Below are positions 2,945 through 63,436 of a DNA stretch of 64,000 bases, in pieces. Made by a program: the position numbers and the translations under genes. The notes under the pieces were generated by a model that was not told where the DNA came from, did not search any database, and saw only the letters and a list, made by a program, of their open reading frames with translations. Numbering within the stretch: position 1 is the first letter of the stretch; each line of letters opens with the position of its first letter. The stretch comes from Thermoflavifilum sp. (GTDB taxonomy: Bacteria; Bacteroidota; Bacteroidia; Chitinophagales; Chitinophagaceae), in contig NZ_CP063141.1 in assembly GCF_014961315.1 (NCBI RefSeq), positions 2,591,123 to 2,655,122 on the forward strand, given 5' to 3'.

Positions 2945-3847
2945 ATGCGCATACTTCTTACTGGTGCTAATGGCTTGCTGGGGCAGCATATACTTGCGCG
3001 GGTGGCGGCGCACCCCGCACACGAATGGATTGCCACAGGTAAAGGTCCATGTCGATTTTCGTGTAATGAACCTATCGTTTATGAATCACTCGATATTACG
3101 GATCGGGAGGCCGTCCGGGCATTATGGAATCGTTACAGGCCAGATGCGATAATTCACGCTGCAGCGATGACCCATGTGGATGCGTGTGAGCAACAAAAAG
3201 CCACCTGCTGGCAAATCAATGTGGAAGGCACCCATCATTTGATAGAGGCTGCCCGGGCTACCAGTAGCTTTTTTCTGCTTGTCTCTACGGATTTTATTTT
3301 CAATGGTGAAGCAGGCCCGTATACGGAAGAAGATGTACCGGAGCCTGTAAATTATTACGGCCTGTCAAAGCTCTGTGCTGAGCAACTGGTACGGGCCAGT
3401 GGTTTACCCTGGGCTATTGCCCGAACCGTGCTGGTGTATGGAAATATACCGGGCCGGGAAAAAAGCAATATCGTGCACTGGATCGTGCAACAGCTCCAGC
3501 AGGGCCACTCCATCCGCATGGTCGATGATCAATGGCGAACGCCCACCTGGGCCGCCGATCTGGCCGAAGGCTGCTGGCAGATTGTATCGCAACAAGCATG
3601 CGGCGTTTTTCATCTGGCAGGCCCCGATATGCTTACCCCATACGCTATGGCACAGCAGATTGCCGAAGTATGGCATCTGCCCGCCGAACTCATCCAGCCG
3701 GTTAATAGCCTCAGCTTTCAGCAGCCGGCCCGCAGGCCGCCCCGCACCGGACTCATCATCCAGAAGGCCATCCAGCAACTCCACTACCAACCGCATGCAT
3801 TTACCGAAAGTTTGCACATCATCCATAAACAGCTCAATCAAACATGA
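2945..3847 (+). CDS. SDR-family NAD(P)-dependent sugar-nucleotide reductase, RmlD-like (dTDP-4-dehydrorhamnose reductase family)
   Basis: MRILLTGANGLLGQ Rossmann N-terminus, YGLSKLCAE (YxxxK), length of 300 aa typical of RmlD-type proteins. Confidence 0.7.
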   Translation: MRILLTGANGLLGQHILARVAAHPAHEWIATGKGPCRFSCNEPIVYESLDITDREAVRALWNRYRPDAIIHAAAMTHVDACEQQKATCWQINVEGTHHLIEAARATSSFFLLVSTDFIFNGEAGPYTEEDVPEPVNYYGLSKLCAEQLVRASGLPWAIARTVLVYGNIPGREKSNIVHWIVQQLQQGHSIRMVDDQWRTPTWAADLAEGCWQIVSQQACGVFHLAGPDMLTPYAMAQQIAEVWHLPAELIQPVNSLSFQQPARRPPRTGLIIQKAIQQLHYQPHAFTESLHIIHKQLNQT

Positions 3848-26298: not shown

Positions 26299-27609
26299 TT
26301 GAAAACGAAATCATTCCGGCCTAACAAAGTGAATATCATTACGCTGGGTTGCGCCAAAAACCTGGTGGATAGTGAGGTGTTGAGTGCGCAGCTCCAGGCC
26401 AACGATATTGCCGTCACACATGAAAGCCGCAAGTCCGATCACGACGTGGTGGTGATCAACACCTGCGGATTTATCGAAAAAGCCAAGGAAGAGTCGATTC
26501 AAACCATCCTCCAGCAAGTCGAAAGAAAGAAAAAAGGTAAGGTGGAAAAGGTGATCGTGACAGGCTGCCTGAGTGCCCGCTATCAACAGGAATTAGAAGC
26601 CGAAATACCCGAAGTGGATGCCTGGTTCGGCTCACAGGCCTTCCGCGAAATCCTGCAGCTCATGCAGGCCGACTATAAAACCGAGCTGGTCGGCGAGCGT
26701 TTGCTATCCACACCTAAACACTATGCCTATCTCAAAATCAGCGAGGGTTGTAACCGCACCTGCGCCTTTTGTGCCATTCCCCTGATGCGCGGCAAGCATG
26801 TGTCGAAGCCCATGGAAGAAATCCTCCAGGAAGCACGCAAGCTGGCCGAAAGGGGAGTGAAAGAACTGCTGCTCATCGCCCAGGAGCTCACCTATTACGG
26901 ACTGGACCTCTACAAAAAACGCAGCCTGCCCGCCCTGCTCGAGCAGCTCGCCACCATACCGGGAATCGAATGGATTCGCCTGCATTATGCTTATCCGGCT
27001 CAATTCCCGATGGATTTATTGCGGGTGATGGAGGCTCATTCCAACATCTGTAAATACCTCGACATGCCCCTGCAGCATATCAACGACCGTATCCTGCAGG
27101 CCATGCATCGCCAGACCGACCGGGCTTATATTGAACGTCTGATCAACAATATCCGCGAAGCAATCCCCGATATCTGCCTGCGTACTACTTTCATCGTGGG
27201 CTTTCCCGGTGAAACGCCCGCCGATGTGGAGGAGCTGATCGCTTTCATGGAAAAAACGCGTTTCGATCGGGTAGGGGTGTTTACCTATTCCCATGAAGAT
27301 CATACGCAGGCGTATCGTTTGCCCGATACCGTAACTCAGGAAGAAAAAGAACGCCGGGCGGAACTCATCATGGAATGCCAGCGGGAAATTTCCTATGAAA
27401 AAAATCTGCAGCGCGTGGGGCAGGTGATGAAAGTAATCGTCGATCGGCGAGAAGCCGGACGTTATGTGGGCAGAACGGAATTCGACTCGCCGGAAGTGGA
27501 TAATGAAGTCATCATCCACACCGATAAACGATTGCGCCCCGGCGATATGATACAGGTGCGCATCAGCGAGGCTTATGATTACGACTTAGCAGGCCAACCG
27601 ATTGATTAA
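26299..27609 (+). CDS. rimO: ribosomal protein S12 methylthiotransferase
   Basis: MTTase N-domain (VNIITLGCAKNLVDSE), radical-SAM CNRTCAFCAIP, and a C-terminal TRAM domain. TTG start per the ORF track. A GTG at about 26329 is an alternative start. Confidence 0.9.
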   Translation: MKTKSFRPNKVNIITLGCAKNLVDSEVLSAQLQANDIAVTHESRKSDHDVVVINTCGFIEKAKEESIQTILQQVERKKKGKVEKVIVTGCLSARYQQELEAEIPEVDAWFGSQAFREILQLMQADYKTELVGERLLSTPKHYAYLKISEGCNRTCAFCAIPLMRGKHVSKPMEEILQEARKLAERGVKELLLIAQELTYYGLDLYKKRSLPALLEQLATIPGIEWIRLHYAYPAQFPMDLLRVMEAHSNICKYLDMPLQHINDRILQAMHRQTDRAYIERLINNIREAIPDICLRTTFIVGFPGETPADVEELIAFMEKTRFDRVGVFTYSHEDHTQAYRLPDTVTQEEKERRAELIMECQREISYEKNLQRVGQVMKVIVDRREAGRYVGRTEFDSPEVDNEVIIHTDKRLRPGDMIQVRISEAYDYDLAGQPID

Positions 27610-45462: not shown

Positions 45463-47262
45463 ATGCCGCGTTTGGAGACGATTCGTAATTTTTGCATCAT
45501 TGCCCATATTGATCATGGCAAAAGCACGCTGGCCGATCGCCTGCTGGAATATACCCATACACTCTCAGCGCGCGAAATGCAGGAGCAGGTGCTGGACGAC
45601 ATGGAACTGGAGCGGGAAAAAGGCATTACCATCAAGAGCCACGCAATTCAAATGCAATATGCCTATGGGGAACAAACCTATACCCTGAATCTGATTGATA
45701 CCCCGGGGCATGTAGATTTTTCTTATGAAGTATCGCGCGCACTTGCCGCATGTGAAGGGGCGCTATTGCTCGTAGATGCCACACAGGGTATTCAGGCGCA
45801 AACCATATCCAACCTGTATCTGGCACTGGATCATGATCTGGAAATCATCCCGGTCATTAATAAAATTGATATGGAAGGTGCGATGATTGAAGAAGTTAAA
45901 GAACAGATCATCGATCTGATTGGCTGCCGGGAGCAGGATATTTTGCTGGCATCGGCCCGCACGGGTGAGGGAGTGGAAGAGATTCTGAAAGCTATCGTGG
46001 AAAAAATACCGCCCCCTGAGGGGGATCCGGATGCGCCTTTACAGGCGTTGATTTTCGACAGTATGTATAATTCCTTTCGCGGAGTGGTAGCTTATTACCG
46101 GGTGTTCAACGGCACCCTGCGAAAAGGCGATAAAGTAAAATTTGTGAACACGGGCCGGGAATATGATGCCGATGAGGTGGGTATCCTTCGCCTGCGGCTG
46201 GAGCCACGCGATCAAATCAGTGCGGGAAATGTAGGTTACATTATCACAGGCATTAAATCGGCCAGTGAGGTACGTGTAGGTGATACCATCACGCTGGTGA
46301 GCAATCCCTGCAAAGAAGCCATCAAAGGCTTTGAAGAAGTAAAGCCCATGGTATTTGCCGGCATTTTTCCCGTGAACACAGAAGATTATGAAGAGCTACG
46401 CGATTGTATGGAAAAACTAAAGCTCAATGATGCAGCCCTGACCTTTGAGCCAGAAACCTCACAGGCACTGGGATTTGGATTTCGTTGTGGATTCCTGGGC
46501 ATGCTGCACATGGAGATTGTGCAGGAACGTCTTGAACGCGAGTTTCACCAGAGTGTAATCACCACCGTACCCAACGTAAGCTTTATTGCCTACACCACAA
46601 AAGGCGAAAAAATCATCGTGAATAATCCGTCTGAAATGCCCGACCCCAGCCGGCTTGATAGGGTAGAGGAACCATTTATTCGCGCACAAATCATTACCAA
46701 ACCCGAATATATTGGCAACATTATGACGCTTTGTCTGGGCAAACGCGGTACACTCATCAACCAGCATTATTTAACCCCCACACGCGTGGAACTCATTTTT
46801 GAAATGCCACTTACCGAAATTGTGTTTGATTTTTACGATAAACTCAAAAGCCAGACCCGCGGCTATGCTTCATTCGATTACCATCCGATCGGTTATCGGG
46901 AGAGTGATATCGTGAAAATGGATATTTTGTTAAATGGCGATAAGGTAGATGCCCTCAGCGCATTGATTCATCGCAGCCGTGCACAGGAGTTGGGCCGCAA
47001 ACTTTGCGAGAAACTGAAAGAATTATTGCCCCGTCAACAGTTCCAGATTGCTATTCAGGCCGCCATCGGTTCTAAAATCATTGCCCGGGAAAACATCAGT
47101 GCCCTGCGCAAGGATGTCACCGCCAAATGTTACGGTGGTGATATTACACGAAAACGCAAACTGCTGGAAAAACAAAAAGAAGGGAAGAAACGTATGCGGC
47201 AGATCGGCAGCGTGGAAGTCCCTCAGGAAGCATTTTTGGCTGTGTTGAAAATAAATGAATAA
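45463..47262 (+). CDS. lepA: translation elongation factor 4
   Basis: [30 protein letters not shown] and NKID GTPase motifs, plus the LepA-specific C-terminus. Start moved to ATG 45463 ([10 protein letters not shown]). Confidence 0.95.
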
Positions 47263-47284
47263 AACGGGAAGATTAAATACGGTT

Positions 47285-47563
47285 CTAATCCCAGCATGTA
47301 TCAAAAAGAATATATTTCACAACCGTAGCCACAAGAATGCCTCCAACCAGCAAAATCCTGTTCCATTGTGCGAATTTAAAACGAATCACTTGCAAGGCTT
47401 TTGCAATATGCTTTTCTACTGTAGAAACAGAAATCTGCATCCGTTGTGCAATTTCTCTATAAGATAATTGTTCTTCTCTACTTAAAAGAAAAGCCTCGCG
47501 GCATTGGGGAGAAAGAGAAGCTATGGCTTCTTGCAGAAAAAGAATTATTTTATTCAGATACAA
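47285..47563 (-). pseudogene. 3' fragment (region 4) of an ECF-type sigma-70 factor, fused to 8 codons derived from the insertion
   Basis: ..FLQEAIASLSPQCREAFLLSREEQLSYREIAQRMQISVSTVEKHIAKALQVIRFKF is a sigma-70 region 4 HTH. Regions 1 and 2 are missing here and lie 1.1 kb away (48604-48990). The first 8 codons (MYLNKIIL) lie in the inserted DNA. Confidence 0.8.
47499..47539. repeat. left copy of a perfect 41-bp direct repeat
   Basis: cggcattggggagaaagagaagctatggcttcttgcagaaa is identical at 48629-48669. Bases on both sides of each copy differ. Confidence 0.95.
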
Positions 47564-47582
47564 TGATTAATGTGACAGGATT

Positions 47583-47831
47583 CTAACTATTTTCTGACTT
47601 ATGGTTTCTCTCTTTTAGCTTCAAAACTAAATTTCGAACTGAAAATATAGCGCCTATGAACAATACTATTGCTAAAATAATAAACGAAGTCTTATCCCAT
47701 TCACCAATTATTATAAGGCGTACAAAGAAAAATATGTATAAAGCTACGGATAGAATCCACAATACCTTTAATAAATATGATAAGTTAGGAGGCATACTAA
47801 GCTGCTTTTTAATCAAAATACAAAAAATCAC
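47583..47831 (-). CDS. small 2-TM membrane protein, candidate immunity protein
   Basis: 82 aa. Two hydrophobic helices (LLKVLWILSVALYIFFFVRLIII, SFIILAIVLFIGAIFSV) and a basic C-tail. Lies 74 bp downstream of the second peptide gene on the same strand. Function inferred from position only. Confidence 0.55.
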   Translation of the reverse strand: MIFCILIKKQLSMPPNLSYLLKVLWILSVALYIFFFVRLIIIGEWDKTSFIILAIVLFIGAIFSVRNLVLKLKERNHKSENS

Positions 47832-47905
47832 ATTCCATGATTAAATATTCATGAATTTGGAACTAATACTTCTCTTAAGGCAACACTTATATTCATTGCT
47901 TATTT

Positions 47906-48103
47906 CTAATCTGTCGCATGTGCTATTGCATACACTTCACAAGCAACGGTACCTGCTATTAAAACCGCTGCGCCAACCCCGGTCAAGGCTAAAAAACTTC
48001 CCACTAATTCAAGAGCACCCACTGCAGCACAGGCTCCATTCCAAAAAGGATCAGTTTTGCCGCCTACAATGTTTACCATTTCTTGATTTGATAATGTTTT
48101 CAT
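47906..48103 (-). CDS. double-glycine-leader bacteriocin-like peptide (paralog 2)
   Basis: MKTLSNQEMVNIVGG|KTDPFWNGACAAVGALELVGSFLALTGVGAAVLIAGTVACEVYAIAHATD. 15-aa GG leader and a Gly/Ala-rich hydrophobic core with 2 Cys. Confidence 0.8.
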   Translation of the reverse strand: MKTLSNQEMVNIVGGKTDPFWNGACAAVGALELVGSFLALTGVGAAVLIAGTVACEVYAIAHATD

Positions 48104-48182
48104 AACTGCATGTTTTAAATATTAATAAATAATTTCCTGGGATCTAATTAATTGATTTCAATTAATACCTCACGATAATACC

Positions 48183-48374
48183 TTACGAAGGACCACAACC
48201 ATCTGCTAATCCTGCTATACACACCACACCTGTTGCTCCTGCCAAAGGGGCAAAGATGGTTGAAAAGGCTAAAATTACGGTCGCTGTACACATGGCGCCT
48301 GTAAAAGCCTGGCATTTAGGATCTGTCGTTCCTCCTTCCACCCTTTCCATCTGTTCAAAGCTTAATGTTTTCAT
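48183..48374 (-). CDS. double-glycine-leader bacteriocin-like peptide (paralog 1)
   Basis: MKTLSFEQMERVEGG|TTDPKCQAFTGAMCTATVILAFSTIFAPLAGATGVVCIAGLADGCGPS. The same MKTLS..QEM..V.GG.TDP leader as paralog 2, and a core with 4 Cys. Confidence 0.8.
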   Translation of the reverse strand: MKTLSFEQMERVEGGTTDPKCQAFTGAMCTATVILAFSTIFAPLAGATGVVCIAGLADGCGPS

Positions 48375-48396
48375 GACTTTAAAATTTTAAAAGTAG

Positions 48397-48414
48397 CCTT
48401 TCAATATTGAAAGG
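48397..48414. promoter_or_regulatory. perfect 18-bp palindrome upstream of peptide gene 1 (candidate operator)
   Basis: cctttcaat|attgaaagg, lying 23-40 bp upstream of the ATG at 48374 (minus strand). Confidence 0.4.
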
Positions 48415-48467
48415 TAATGTAAAATTGAAAAGGATCTTTTAAATTTACAACAAGCTGACCTTATAAT

Positions 48468-48486
48468 TTATAACTTAAAGTTATAA
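48468..48486. promoter_or_regulatory. perfect 9-1-9 palindrome in the divergent intergenic region (candidate operator)
   Basis: ttataactt a aagttataa, located between the peptide operon and the HTH remnant. Confidence 0.35.
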
Positions 48487-48674
48487 TTTTTTCATTAAAT
48501 CTCCTATTTTCTCATGAAAACACCTCATCCACCAAAAAATCTAAAAAGCAGTTTCTGTCGCTGGCACAACGTATTTTGCAATACCGGTTGCAGCGGGAAT
48601 TTACGCAAAGTGTTGTGGCTGCGTATCTCGGCATTGGGGAGAAAGAGAAGCTATGGCTTCTTGCAGAAATGTAG
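48474..48674 (+). pseudogene. remnant of an XRE-type HTH regulator gene (frameshifted and 3'-truncated)
   Basis: This frame reads ..KKSKKQFLSLAQRILQYRLQREFTQSVVAAYLGI, an XRE-like helix-turn-helix N-terminus, then runs into the repeat and stops at 48672-48674. The only ATG (48514, MKTPHPP) is in another frame and could be joined by a 1-nt change in the A6 run at 48534-48539. Confidence 0.4.
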
Positions 48675-48990
48675 CCATTGCTTTTTCTGATAAGCTTTCA
48701 TCAACTGATGGTTGATTCATGCCTGTCGATAATTCCCTAATTTTATTTTGAATATATTTCCGATTCCTTTCAGAACGTAAAATATATAAAATTTTATTTC
48801 GGAGTGTCGCATAAAGATAAGCCTGTATGTTCCCATGACTATCCAGCTGATTAGCCTTTTAAAGAAGAAGGGGCTTAAATCCCGAATCCATGAAAAAGTA
48901 TATCGGGCATTCTATCCGGCAAAAGCGATATTCCCTATATATTAAAATTCTTTGAAACTTGATCTTTAATCCCCTAACGTTCCTCTGTGC
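48604..48990 (-). pseudogene. 5' fragment (region 2 and linker) of the same ECF-type sigma-70 gene, with an in-frame stop
   Basis: Minus-strand frame reads ..KANQLDSHGNIQAYLYATLRNKILYILRSERNRKYIQNKIRELSTGMNQPSVDESLSEKAMATFLQEAIASLSPQC, then RDTQPQHFA* (stop at 48601-48603). An in-frame TAA at 48859-48861 interrupts the region-2 part, and I see no usable start codon. The upstream end near 48990 is approximate. Confidence 0.7.
48629..48669. repeat. right copy of the perfect 41-bp direct repeat
   Basis: Identical to 47499-47539. Confidence 0.95.
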
Positions 48991-49022
48991 TATCTTTCGG
49001 AATTAATGTTTTCTTTGAAAAA

Positions 49023-62905: not shown

Positions 62906-63436
62906 ATGCAATCCTTTCGTTTGACGGCATCCATGACTTGTTTATTAACAGTAGCTACATGGCTCATTTCCGGTACTGCTGCATGTGCGCAGGATAATGC
63001 CGGCGATCAACCCCTGTTTCTCAGATATCCGACGATACCACATTTCACTGTCATTACAGCCGATGGAAAGAGCTTCACGGAAAAAGATTTAAAGAAAAAC
63101 ACTCCCACACTTATTTTCCTGTTCAGTGTGGATTGCGAACACTGTCATCATGAAACGGAAGATATCGTGCAACATATCCATCAATTTAAAGGCACTCAAA
63201 TCCTTATGGTTACACATTTCCCTGTGAATGATATGACTCAATATGCACATGATTATCACCTCGATCAATATCCCCGCATCATCACGGTGGCAACCGATGA
63301 AAAACGATGGCTGTTGAGTTTTTATCGATTACACTTCTTTCCAGGATTGTATATTTACAATGCAAATAACCAGCTCGTTTACCATGCGGAAGGTACAAGG
63401 CCTGTAGATACGCTTTTGCATTATTTGAAGCCTTGA
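62906..63436 (+). CDS. thioredoxin-fold (TlpA/redoxin-like) protein
   Basis: Signal-like N-terminus and LIFLFSVDCEHCHHE with a CxxC motif in the usual thioredoxin-fold position. Confidence 0.7.
   Translation: MQSFRLTASMTCLLTVATWLISGTAACAQDNAGDQPLFLRYPTIPHFTVITADGKSFTEKDLKKNTPTLIFLFSVDCEHCHHETEDIVQHIHQFKGTQILMVTHFPVNDMTQYAHDYHLDQYPRIITVATDEKRWLLSFYRLHFFPGLYIYNANNQLVYHAEGTRPVDTLLHYLKP

Follow-up and report, generated by a model that had tools for sequence, protein, structure and literature searches.

Bacteroidetocins, the 'class IIf' bacteriocins of the Bacteroidota (Coyne et al. 2019, PMC6671954; Matano et al. 2021, PMC8546649), constitute the described system closest to the locus considered here, a cassette of two small genes, pepA and pepB, for peptides with a double-glycine (GG) leader, followed by a gene for a small protein with two transmembrane (TM) segments. 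The cassette lies in a 64,000-nucleotide stretch of the genome of Thermoflavifilum sp., a member of the Bacteroidota from a hot environment (NCBI RefSeq assembly GCF_014961315.1, contig NZ_CP063141.1, positions 2,591,123 to 2,655,122 of the forward strand), hereafter the window, from whose first letter all coordinates are counted. It probably represents a reduced copy of a conserved Bacteroidota operon that encodes a two-peptide double-glycine-leader bacteriocin together with a small membrane immunity protein.

For bacteroidetocins, a set of four genes has been shown experimentally to suffice for toxin production, and cleavage of the leader at the GG has been confirmed by mass spectrometry (PMC6671954). 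Their target is the protein BamA (PMC8546649). Bacteroidetocins A and B carry net charges of +6 and +2, respectively, with 12–13 hydrophobic residues out of 42, and the loci studied contain no immunity gene (PMC6671954). Across the phylum, 4,494 unique class II bacteriocin sequences have been predicted (PMC12648112), and a published microcin pipeline fails to recover bacteroidetocins (PMC12219008). The first-pass annotation of the window held GG-leader peptides of this kind in Bacteroidota to be essentially uncharacterised; this was overstated, as bacteroidetocins have been characterised (PMC6671954, PMC8546649), but it does apply to the present peptide family, which is unstudied and of which no description was found in the literature searched. 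With predicted class II bacteriocins of the phylum numbering in the thousands, the kind is already known, and the cassette is not a categorically new system; it belongs to a two-peptide family that has bacteroidetocin-type production genes elsewhere.

Comparison with known bacteriocin systems

Bacteroidetocins have a GG leader of 15–16 amino acids (aa) and a mature peptide of about 42–53 aa with at least two cysteines (PMC6671954), and both pepA and pepB encode peptides of this description from the same phylum; the two or four cysteines of bacteroidetocins are thought to be disulfide-bonded. The likeness extends to the genomic setting, since homologous loci in other genomes (L005, L011, L012, L013, L016, and L022–L026) possess the same accessory set and, as in bacteroidetocin loci, no HlyD-type gene. 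The bacteroidetocin neighbourhood of a 5-TM protein, a thiol oxidoreductase, and an ATP-binding cassette (ABC) transporter/peptidase is present at L005 and similar at the other loci named, whereas the window copy lacks all accessory genes. Bacteroidetocins further differ in having one peptide rather than two in tandem, and no immunity gene where a small 2-TM gene is conserved here. Their cores are cationic, whereas those of the present family are very hydrophobic and acidic or neutral, with a grand average of hydropathy (GRAVY) of about +1, in a comparison of physico-chemical properties.

Class IIb bacteriocins of Firmicutes (the lactococcin G and plantaricin EF/JK type) resemble the cassette in gene order: two adjacent GG-leader genes of similar size and a gene for a small membrane immunity protein form one operon, and the same arrangement is found here, with the immunity role of the 2-TM protein putative and assigned by position. 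Cores that are rich in small residues and, here by prediction, helical, and presumed export through an ABC transporter with a C39 peptidase domain (C39-ABC), are further points in common. However, there is no significant sequence match between the two groups, the producer here is diderm, and synergy between pepA and pepB peptides is presumed by analogy. Class IIb peptides are also typically cationic and cysteine-free. Class II microcins of Proteobacteria are likewise unmodified GG-leader peptides of Gram-negative producers, served by a peptidase-containing ABC exporter and a small immunity protein. They differ from the cassette in using a membrane fusion protein (MFP) and TolC, and in belonging to enterobacterial sequence families.

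Architecture of the cassette

The three genes of the cassette lie on the minus strand. pepA (48183–48374) encodes a 63-aa precursor in which the leader MKTLSFEQMERVEGG is followed by TTDPKC..., and pepB (47906–48103) encodes a 65-aa precursor in which the leader MKTLSNQEMVNIVGG is followed by KTDPFW.... The two 15-aa leaders are near-identical, both end in GG, and fit the double-glycine consensus, with hydrophobic residues at positions −4, −7, −12, and −15 and glycines at −2/−1; they thereby fall within the general description of such leaders (about 15–30 aa ending in GG, or GA, GS, or AG, and hydrophobic at −4, −7, and −12). Cleavage after the GG would leave mature cores of 48 aa (pepA) and 50 aa (pepB), of which 31% and 36%, respectively, are glycine or alanine; both have a GRAVY of about +1.0, and the net charges are −1 and −3, with isoelectric points of 4.2 and 4.5. 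The pepA product contains four cysteines (C21, C29, C52, and C60) and that of pepB contains two (C25 and C55). The first-pass annotation had described two tandem minus-strand open reading frames (ORFs) with near-identical 15-residue leaders followed by xTDP, and Gly/Ala-rich hydrophobic cores of about 50 aa with four and two cysteines, and the translations and core measurements agree with this on every point. The pepB product is 100% identical to a hypothetical protein (IMW88_11135) from a Thermoflavifilum sp. metagenome-assembled genome (MAG; Chitinophagaceae).

The third gene (47583–47795, minus strand) encodes the small 2-TM protein, with two strongly hydrophobic segments and a basic tail. 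Its product is 70 aa long from an ATG at 47795, the start chosen by gene callers in three metagenomes (L001, L003, and L010), or 82 aa from a GTG at 47831. The longer form was that of the first-pass annotation, of which the two TM segments and the position usual for an immunity gene stand.

Peptide families

Both peptides belong to families of homologues. A profile search with pepA among 1.84 billion representatives recovered 61 clusters (50% identity) at E ≤ 1e-3, 23 of these at E ≤ 1e-10, and the corresponding search with pepB recovered 27 clusters (90% identity). Almost all of these relatives are unnamed or 'hypothetical', although one cluster of the pepB profile is labelled 'bacteriocin-like protein' by its source. 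Alignment of the homologues shows that the leader is conserved across both families, and a common pattern, M-K-x-L-x-x-x-x-M-x-x-[IVL]-x-G-G, is shared by the 65 pepA-family and 27 pepB-family sequences; a minority of members have either a longer leader in the style of TIGR04149 or AG, GS, or NG as the cleavage dipeptide. Within the pepB family, FW(N/D)GxC is a family motif and both cysteines are invariant. The first-pass annotation had made its proposal depend on GG-leader homologues in other genomes, and these families supply them.

Comparison of the two family profiles with each other gave a probability of 95%, with the match lying mainly in the leader and the first conserved cysteine. It is short, but the description of the pair as paralogous, already offered in the first-pass annotation, appears reasonable on this basis. 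Because each peptide has a conserved family of homologues in which leader and gene order recur even in distant genomes, the module is judged to be far beyond chance and its genes to be real rather than chance ORFs.

Homologous loci with export genes

In about eight independent loci, homologues of pepA and pepB are neighbours and adjoin a gene for a C39-peptidase ABC exporter, and the pair, usually together with a small 2-TM gene, recurs in several Bacteroidota lineages. This linkage supports the two-peptide GG-leader bacteriocin architecture that had been proposed from the window alone. Typical neighbours in these loci are a protein with about five TM segments (of the 215-aa type) and the C39-ABC exporter, with a thioredoxin-like gene detected in most.

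In L005, a contig of 50 kb, a homologue of pepA (63% identity) precedes one of pepB, after which comes a gene for a 54-aa 2-TM protein. Further along are genes for a protein of 215 aa and about five TM segments, a thioredoxin/ResA-like (Redoxin) protein, a DUF5687 permease paired with an ABC ATPase, and a 725-aa C39-ABC transporter, which contains a Peptidase_C39 domain with the catalytic SDCG motif and matches TIGR01193 at E = 1e-105. An XRE-type regulator lies upstream and is divergently transcribed. In a scan that took one genome per species, the same neighbourhood was found in L011 (an unclassified Bacteroidota MAG), L012 (a Rikenellaceae MAG), L016 and L017 (Bacteroidales MAGs), and L013, a Flavobacterium genome whose record is flagged UNVERIFIED_CONTAM.

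A pepB-like gene lies directly downstream of a pepA-like gene in L005, L011, L012, L013, and L022–L026. The order pepA-pepB-small 2-TM gene is kept in L005, L011, and L013, while the 2-TM gene of L012 is cut by the contig end; the 2-TM homologues after pepB in the three former loci are weak (25–31% identity), with a common (G/D)(E/K)W loop. In L022–L026, the order is a 220-aa gene, a 170–173-aa gene, a C39-ABC exporter, and genes for peptides of 61 aa and 62 aa; the exporter has Pfam matches, whereas the 220-aa and 170–173-aa genes have none and are matched on length and place alone. In those complete loci whose neighbouring genes carry Pfam annotation, the pair has no radical-SAM or other modification enzyme next to it.

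A DUF5687-type multi-TM protein with an ABC ATPase recurs within these peptide loci, apart from the C39 exporter (L005:11892–14059, L016:8729–10142, and L004:4577–6714) and may be an accessory immunity or efflux transporter. L022 also contains, about 6 kb from the pair and on the other strand, an unrelated cluster resembling those for ribosomally synthesised and post-translationally modified peptides (RiPPs), with PqqD, ScmC, ABC membrane and ATPase proteins, and NTP_transf_5 (L022:11266–15762, minus strand).

Cysteines and predicted structure

Co-variation of the cysteines was computed on 65 pepA-family sequences. The inner cysteines, C29 and C52, are present in 59 and 61 of these, respectively. 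The outer pair, C21 and C60, behaves as a unit: both are present in 22 sequences, neither in 37, and a single one in six (Fisher p = 3.5e-11, a value that overstates independence because the sequences are related). On either arm, the spacing between outer and inner cysteine is eight residues. All 27 pepB-family members contain exactly two cysteines. AlphaFold2 (AF2) models each peptide as a short leader helix followed by a helix-turn-helix, with helices at residues 19–37 and 39–57 in pepA (pLDDT 62) and at 19–34 and 42–63 in pepB (pLDDT 64). Profiles of either family found no meaningful relatives in the PDB. The co-variation, together with these low-confidence models, suggests that the cores are antiparallel helical hairpins stapled by nested disulfides.

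By analogy with the complete loci of other genomes, an ABC exporter would recognise the 15-residue leader of each precursor with its C39 peptidase domain, cut the precursor after Gly14-Gly15, and export it. The thioredoxin-like oxidoreductase of the locus would staple the hairpins of about 48–50 residues, as has been proposed for bacteroidetocins, through C21-C60 and C29-C52 in pepA and C25-C55 in pepB. The calculated monoisotopic masses of the mature peptides are 4614.20 Da for pepA with two disulfides (4618.23 Da reduced) and 4901.48 Da for pepB with one (4903.49 Da reduced). The two very hydrophobic peptides would act jointly on the envelope of a neighbouring cell, while the 2-TM protein would protect the producer. 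In the window, the cassette is parted from its exporter, oxidoreductase, 5-TM protein, and XRE regulator, and sits inside a dead gene for an extracytoplasmic function (ECF) sigma factor. With the production genes lost, it could yield a toxin only with the help of a compatible exporter from elsewhere in the genome; failing that, the immunity gene alone would be of use.

Absence of production genes from the window

No homologues of the exporter, oxidoreductase, or 5-TM protein were found in the 64-kb window by tblastn with queries from the related loci (the C39-ABC exporter, two ABC ATPases, the DUF5687 permease, the 215-aa TM protein, and the thioredoxin-like protein). A C39-peptidase ABC exporter, adjacent to the homologues in about eight loci, is thus missing within 64 kb here. 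One weak match was obtained, to a 176-aa thioredoxin-fold protein of the AhpC/TSA family (62906–63436; E = 3e-5 over 38 residues); this gene is located among housekeeping genes at a distance of 15 kb and probably has nothing to do with the cassette. In Pfam scans, about 37 larger ORFs of the window proved to be housekeeping genes or genes unconnected with export or peptide modification. The sole radical-SAM gene of the window (26299–27609) lies 20 kb away and combines UPF0004, Radical_SAM, and TRAM domains, as is typical of methylthiotransferases of the MiaB/RimO type; it is not a peptide maturase. A TIGR04149 peptide would be expected to have a radical-SAM maturase beside it, and none adjoins the cassette.

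These scans agree with the first-pass annotation that the 64 kb contain no C39/ABC exporter or modification enzyme. An HlyD-type partner is absent too, as had been stated, but this says nothing about the window because the related complete loci carry none either. The comparative context also supports the earlier alternative that the module either depends on machinery encoded elsewhere or is a remnant.

The insertion site and control region

The first-pass annotation treated the module as an orphan and overlooked that it lies inside an ECF sigma-70 pseudogene, between direct repeats and beside a truncated regulator. The 44-bp repeat has an upstream copy at 48626–48669, which is part of the sigma gene and encodes FLQEAIASLSPQCR, and a downstream copy at 47496–47539, which is 98% identical; their spacing is 1130 nucleotides (nt). 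Both sigma fragments are on the minus strand. The middle part (48670–48859; 48626–48859 including the repeat copy) runs from about region 2.4 into the linker and is collinear with the sigma ORF of L004, a contig from a close relative. The C-terminal part, region 4 (47285–47495; 47285–47539 including the repeat copy), extends from the downstream repeat to the stop codon and adjoins the 3′ end of lepA; it matches Pfam Sigma70_r4_2 at E = 6e-18 and positions 101–159 of 162 in TIGR02985. Removal of the 1130 nt in silico produces a single open sigma frame of about 147 codons, which is collinear with the uninterrupted L004 sigma gene and has about eight residue differences from it. The window gene is a pseudogene in any case, because its start and regions 2.1–2.2 are missing.

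Upstream of pepA is the remnant of an XRE-type (HTH_3) regulator gene (48514–48641, plus strand), which breaks off after residue 43 of 79 and has lost 1 nt at codon 6, with a frameshift as the result. The intact L004 regulator (3419–3658, minus strand; Pfam HTH_3) matches it in tblastn at 92% identity over residues 6–43. Where the sigma gene meets the regulator, the two share the sequence AATGCCG; where it meets the sequence that lies downstream of the 2-TM gene, the common sequence is TTT(C)TGCAA. Such microhomology is a mark of illegitimate recombination or template switching rather than of transposase or integrase action. The whole interval from 47200 to 49000 has a GC content of 0.32–0.39, against 0.43–0.49 in the flanking lepA and heptose-biosynthesis genes. 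No phage, plasmid, or integrative-element link emerged: the pepA profile found no confirmed relatives in viral contigs, plasmids yielded no DNA match, no tRNA gene is nearby, and no Rfam family was matched.

Between the regulator remnant and pepA lies a conserved divergent control region (48375–48513, minus strand). It contains a near-perfect 25-nt palindrome at 48465–48489 (AATTTATAACTT-A-AAGTTATAATTT), which is a candidate operator; the 39-nt stretch that includes it shows no variation among the five aligned copies. The region also contains a perfect 18-nt palindrome (CCTTTCAAT/ATTGAAAGG; 48397–48414), which lies about 23 nt before the start codon of pepA; the window and one L004 cassette (that of the peptide pep68, described below) have it unaltered, L001 has it with one substitution, and the pepA cassettes of L003 and L004 have it with two. 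A scan for sigma-70 promoters and terminators gave background levels, with a sigma-70 model that is ill-suited to Bacteroidota promoters, and only imperfect versions of the Bacteroidota-style TAnnTTTG motif were found.

The A/T palindrome between pepA and pepB (48147–48166, minus strand) exists as the first-pass annotation reported, with a stem of 8 bp rather than 9. As a terminator or attenuator, it was rejected, since its folding is no better than that of shuffled sequence (z = −0.2) and thus indistinguishable from chance; it is conserved in close relatives, but these are only 3%–10% diverged.

Related contigs and variability of the island

The interval between a conserved 296-aa gene and lepA is variable among related contigs. 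L028 (89% nucleotide identity) diverges from the window at 48890, and in L031, a more distant relative, the place between the 296-aa gene and lepA is taken by an unrelated gene of 123 aa; on these grounds it is doubtful that the sigma gene is native to the site. Four independent metagenome contigs break in or at the edge of the 1.6-kb island, namely L003 (ends at 47555), L030 (ends at 48637), L001 (starts at 48499), and L010 (starts at 48392), and both L030 (2.58 Mb) and L003 (585 kb) end at or beside a copy of the 44-bp repeat. These breaks fit repeated sequence or strain heterogeneity in natural populations.

In L004, the regulator is intact and the sigma sequence uninterrupted, and further cassettes that include ABC genes are present. 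From such comparisons, the window arrangement is read as a derived, reduced version of an island of this kind, although no unique or single-step history can be derived. In L004, a regulator-promoter-leader block that is 96% identical over about 300 nt to that of the window precedes an unrelated 68-aa peptide, pep68. The genes after pep68 encode a membrane protein of 136 aa with an internal duplication, an ABC ATPase, and a second membrane protein, of 461 aa. The block similarity stops directly after the GG codons (L004:3490–3870 compared with window 48300–48680 and L004:6820–7200), which suggests cassette exchange at the leader/core boundary.

It is conceivable, if rather unlikely, that the cassette is a unit of a leader-anchored shuffling system, in which regulator-promoter-leader blocks of about 96% identity are placed before unrelated core and immunity modules and whole cassettes are copied or deleted via homologies of 7–10 nt between sites of a hypervariable island beside lepA. 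The orphan would then be a stored cassette that recombination could reconnect to an expression and export locus, thereby diversifying the toxin/immunity repertoire of the strain; such cassettes could be likened to the silent cassettes of antigenic variation.

Other features of these contigs may be recorded here. The same 68-aa peptide and membrane-protein module occurs in L019, a Bacteroidales MAG. Upstream of the frameshifted sigma gene of L004, and on the opposite strand to it, L004:1722–2939 (minus strand) contains a cysteine-rich ORF of 82 aa in which no GG leader is evident, a membrane protein of 132 aa whose two halves are nearly identical, and a fragment resembling the anti-sigma factor FecR, all of which may be further toxin/immunity debris. 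A stretch of about 33–44 nt (L004:3405–3448 compared with window 47219–47262) is identical to the 3′ end of lepA and lies after the sigma gene, overlapping the end of the XRE regulator gene; apparently, the island either received a copy of a lepA-adjacent piece or entered at the lepA end with duplication. L004 was rejected as a circular element: its ends overlap the same part of the window but are two copies, because they differ in pepB allele.

Evidence for and against a two-peptide bacteriocin

Several observations weigh against the interpretation of the cassette as a two-peptide bacteriocin with its immunity gene. Neither peptide passes any curated bacteriocin model. pepB resembles PF10439 (Bacteriocin_IIc) in its GG leader and Gly/Ala-rich hydrophobic core but, with 19.1 bits over 55 aligned residues (E = 1.3e-3), stays below the gathering threshold of 27.1, while pepA matches nothing in Pfam or the other curated models tested; neither can therefore be filed as a PF10439 member, and their relatives in L005 and L004 gave no PF10439 match. 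Lactobin A and cerein 7B, named as examples of this architecture in the first-pass annotation, presumably fall under this Pfam family, membership of which thus fails at the curated threshold. Against TIGR04149, the model for radical-SAM-modified GG-leader RiPPs of the Cytophaga-Flavobacterium-Bacteroides (CFB) group, pepB scored 16.5 bits (cut-off 25; E = 0.006), and the lactococcin G/enterocin 1071-type models NF038035 and NF038034 gave 13.0 and 12.8 bits (cut-off 37; E = 0.08–0.11), in a match confined to the leader. The acidic nature of the mature peptides and a hydrophobicity equal to that of membrane helices are not typical of class II bacteriocins, nor of bacteroidetocins A and B, and the AF2 models are of low confidence. 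In the L003/L004 lineage, moreover, the pepA leader ends in VERG instead of VEGG, through a change of Gly −2 to Arg (L003:9726–9917 and L004:7126–7317), while the core differs from the window copy at one residue only; this may reflect relaxed constraint on, or loss of, processing in that lineage. The 2-TM gene, finally, has a ratio of non-synonymous to synonymous polymorphism (pN/pS) of 0.65–1.9, which on very few sites is uninformative.

This ratio comes from a comparison of the window with five related metagenomic contigs at about 90%–97% nucleotide identity. All three ORFs are intact in every copy recovered from these contigs, whereas the adjacent regulator and sigma genes are broken. pN/pS is 0.24–0.32 for pepA, on few sites, and 0–0.9 for pepB, on too few sites for a firm statement. 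Because the ORFs are intact beside broken genes, and because of these ratios and the invariant 39-nt core of the control region, the comparison favours continued selection on at least part of the cassette, which would be equally compatible with export in trans and with a role in immunity only.

The latter would suffice if the cassette is an immunity-only, or 'cheater', element, in which the 2-TM protein guards against the same toxin made by neighbours and the peptide genes are carried along without being exported here. In its favour, immunity genes without their toxin partners are a common feature of bacteriocin systems, the window has the regulator, the exporter, the oxidoreductase, and the 5-TM protein either missing or broken, and the pepA leader has mutated to RG in one lineage. 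However, the retention of intact pepA and pepB in every copy, the low pN/pS of pepA, and the invariance of the promoter/leader block speak against it; the immunity role of that gene is itself putative, and the bacteroidetocin loci studied have no immunity gene (PMC6671954). This explanation is the strongest competitor, but an improbable one.

A non-functional remnant, the unexpressed and not yet degraded debris of a larger bacteriocin island that has been deleted down, receives still less credence. The cassette does sit among sigma and XRE pseudogene fragments in a variable, low-GC island, with the microhomology at both junctions that is typical of illegitimate recombination; but not one stop or frameshift has accumulated in about 600 coding nt in any copy from the five contigs, although the adjacent regulator is already frameshifted, and the control region is invariant. 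It is very unlikely that the peptides are not antibacterial at all but exported signals, small membrane-resident proteins, or precursors of modified RiPPs of the TIGR04149-like radical-SAM type, for although the uncharged or acidic, membrane-helix-like cores are atypical for toxins and both the weak TIGR04149 match of pepB and the longer leader of some family members point that way, no modification enzyme adjoins the pair in the complete, Pfam-annotated loci, the accessory genes are those of the bacteroidetocin toxin-production set (PMC6671954), and a conserved downstream 2-TM gene fits the logic of toxin and immunity.

Significance

If a two-peptide bacteriocin with its immunity protein is indeed what the family encodes, the bacteroidetocin-style export machinery of Bacteroidota would have a second type of product: two co-encoded, disulfide-stapled, acidic, membrane-like peptides accompanied by a protective protein. 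Because the chemistry of these peptides differs, the mechanism of the cationic bacteroidetocin A, at BamA on the cell surface, is unlikely to apply to them directly, and a new target or mode of action is possible. The family is spread over several Bacteroidota lineages, including at least Chitinophagaceae, Bacteroidales/Rikenellaceae, and Flavobacterium, and, having no Pfam or NCBIfam model, is missed by routine annotation. The locus in the window is of interest mainly as an orphan cassette: it would constitute a natural experiment in which the toxin/immunity cassette has stayed intact after loss of the exporter and regulator, and it may thus bear on how orphan immunity or 'cheater' cassettes persist.

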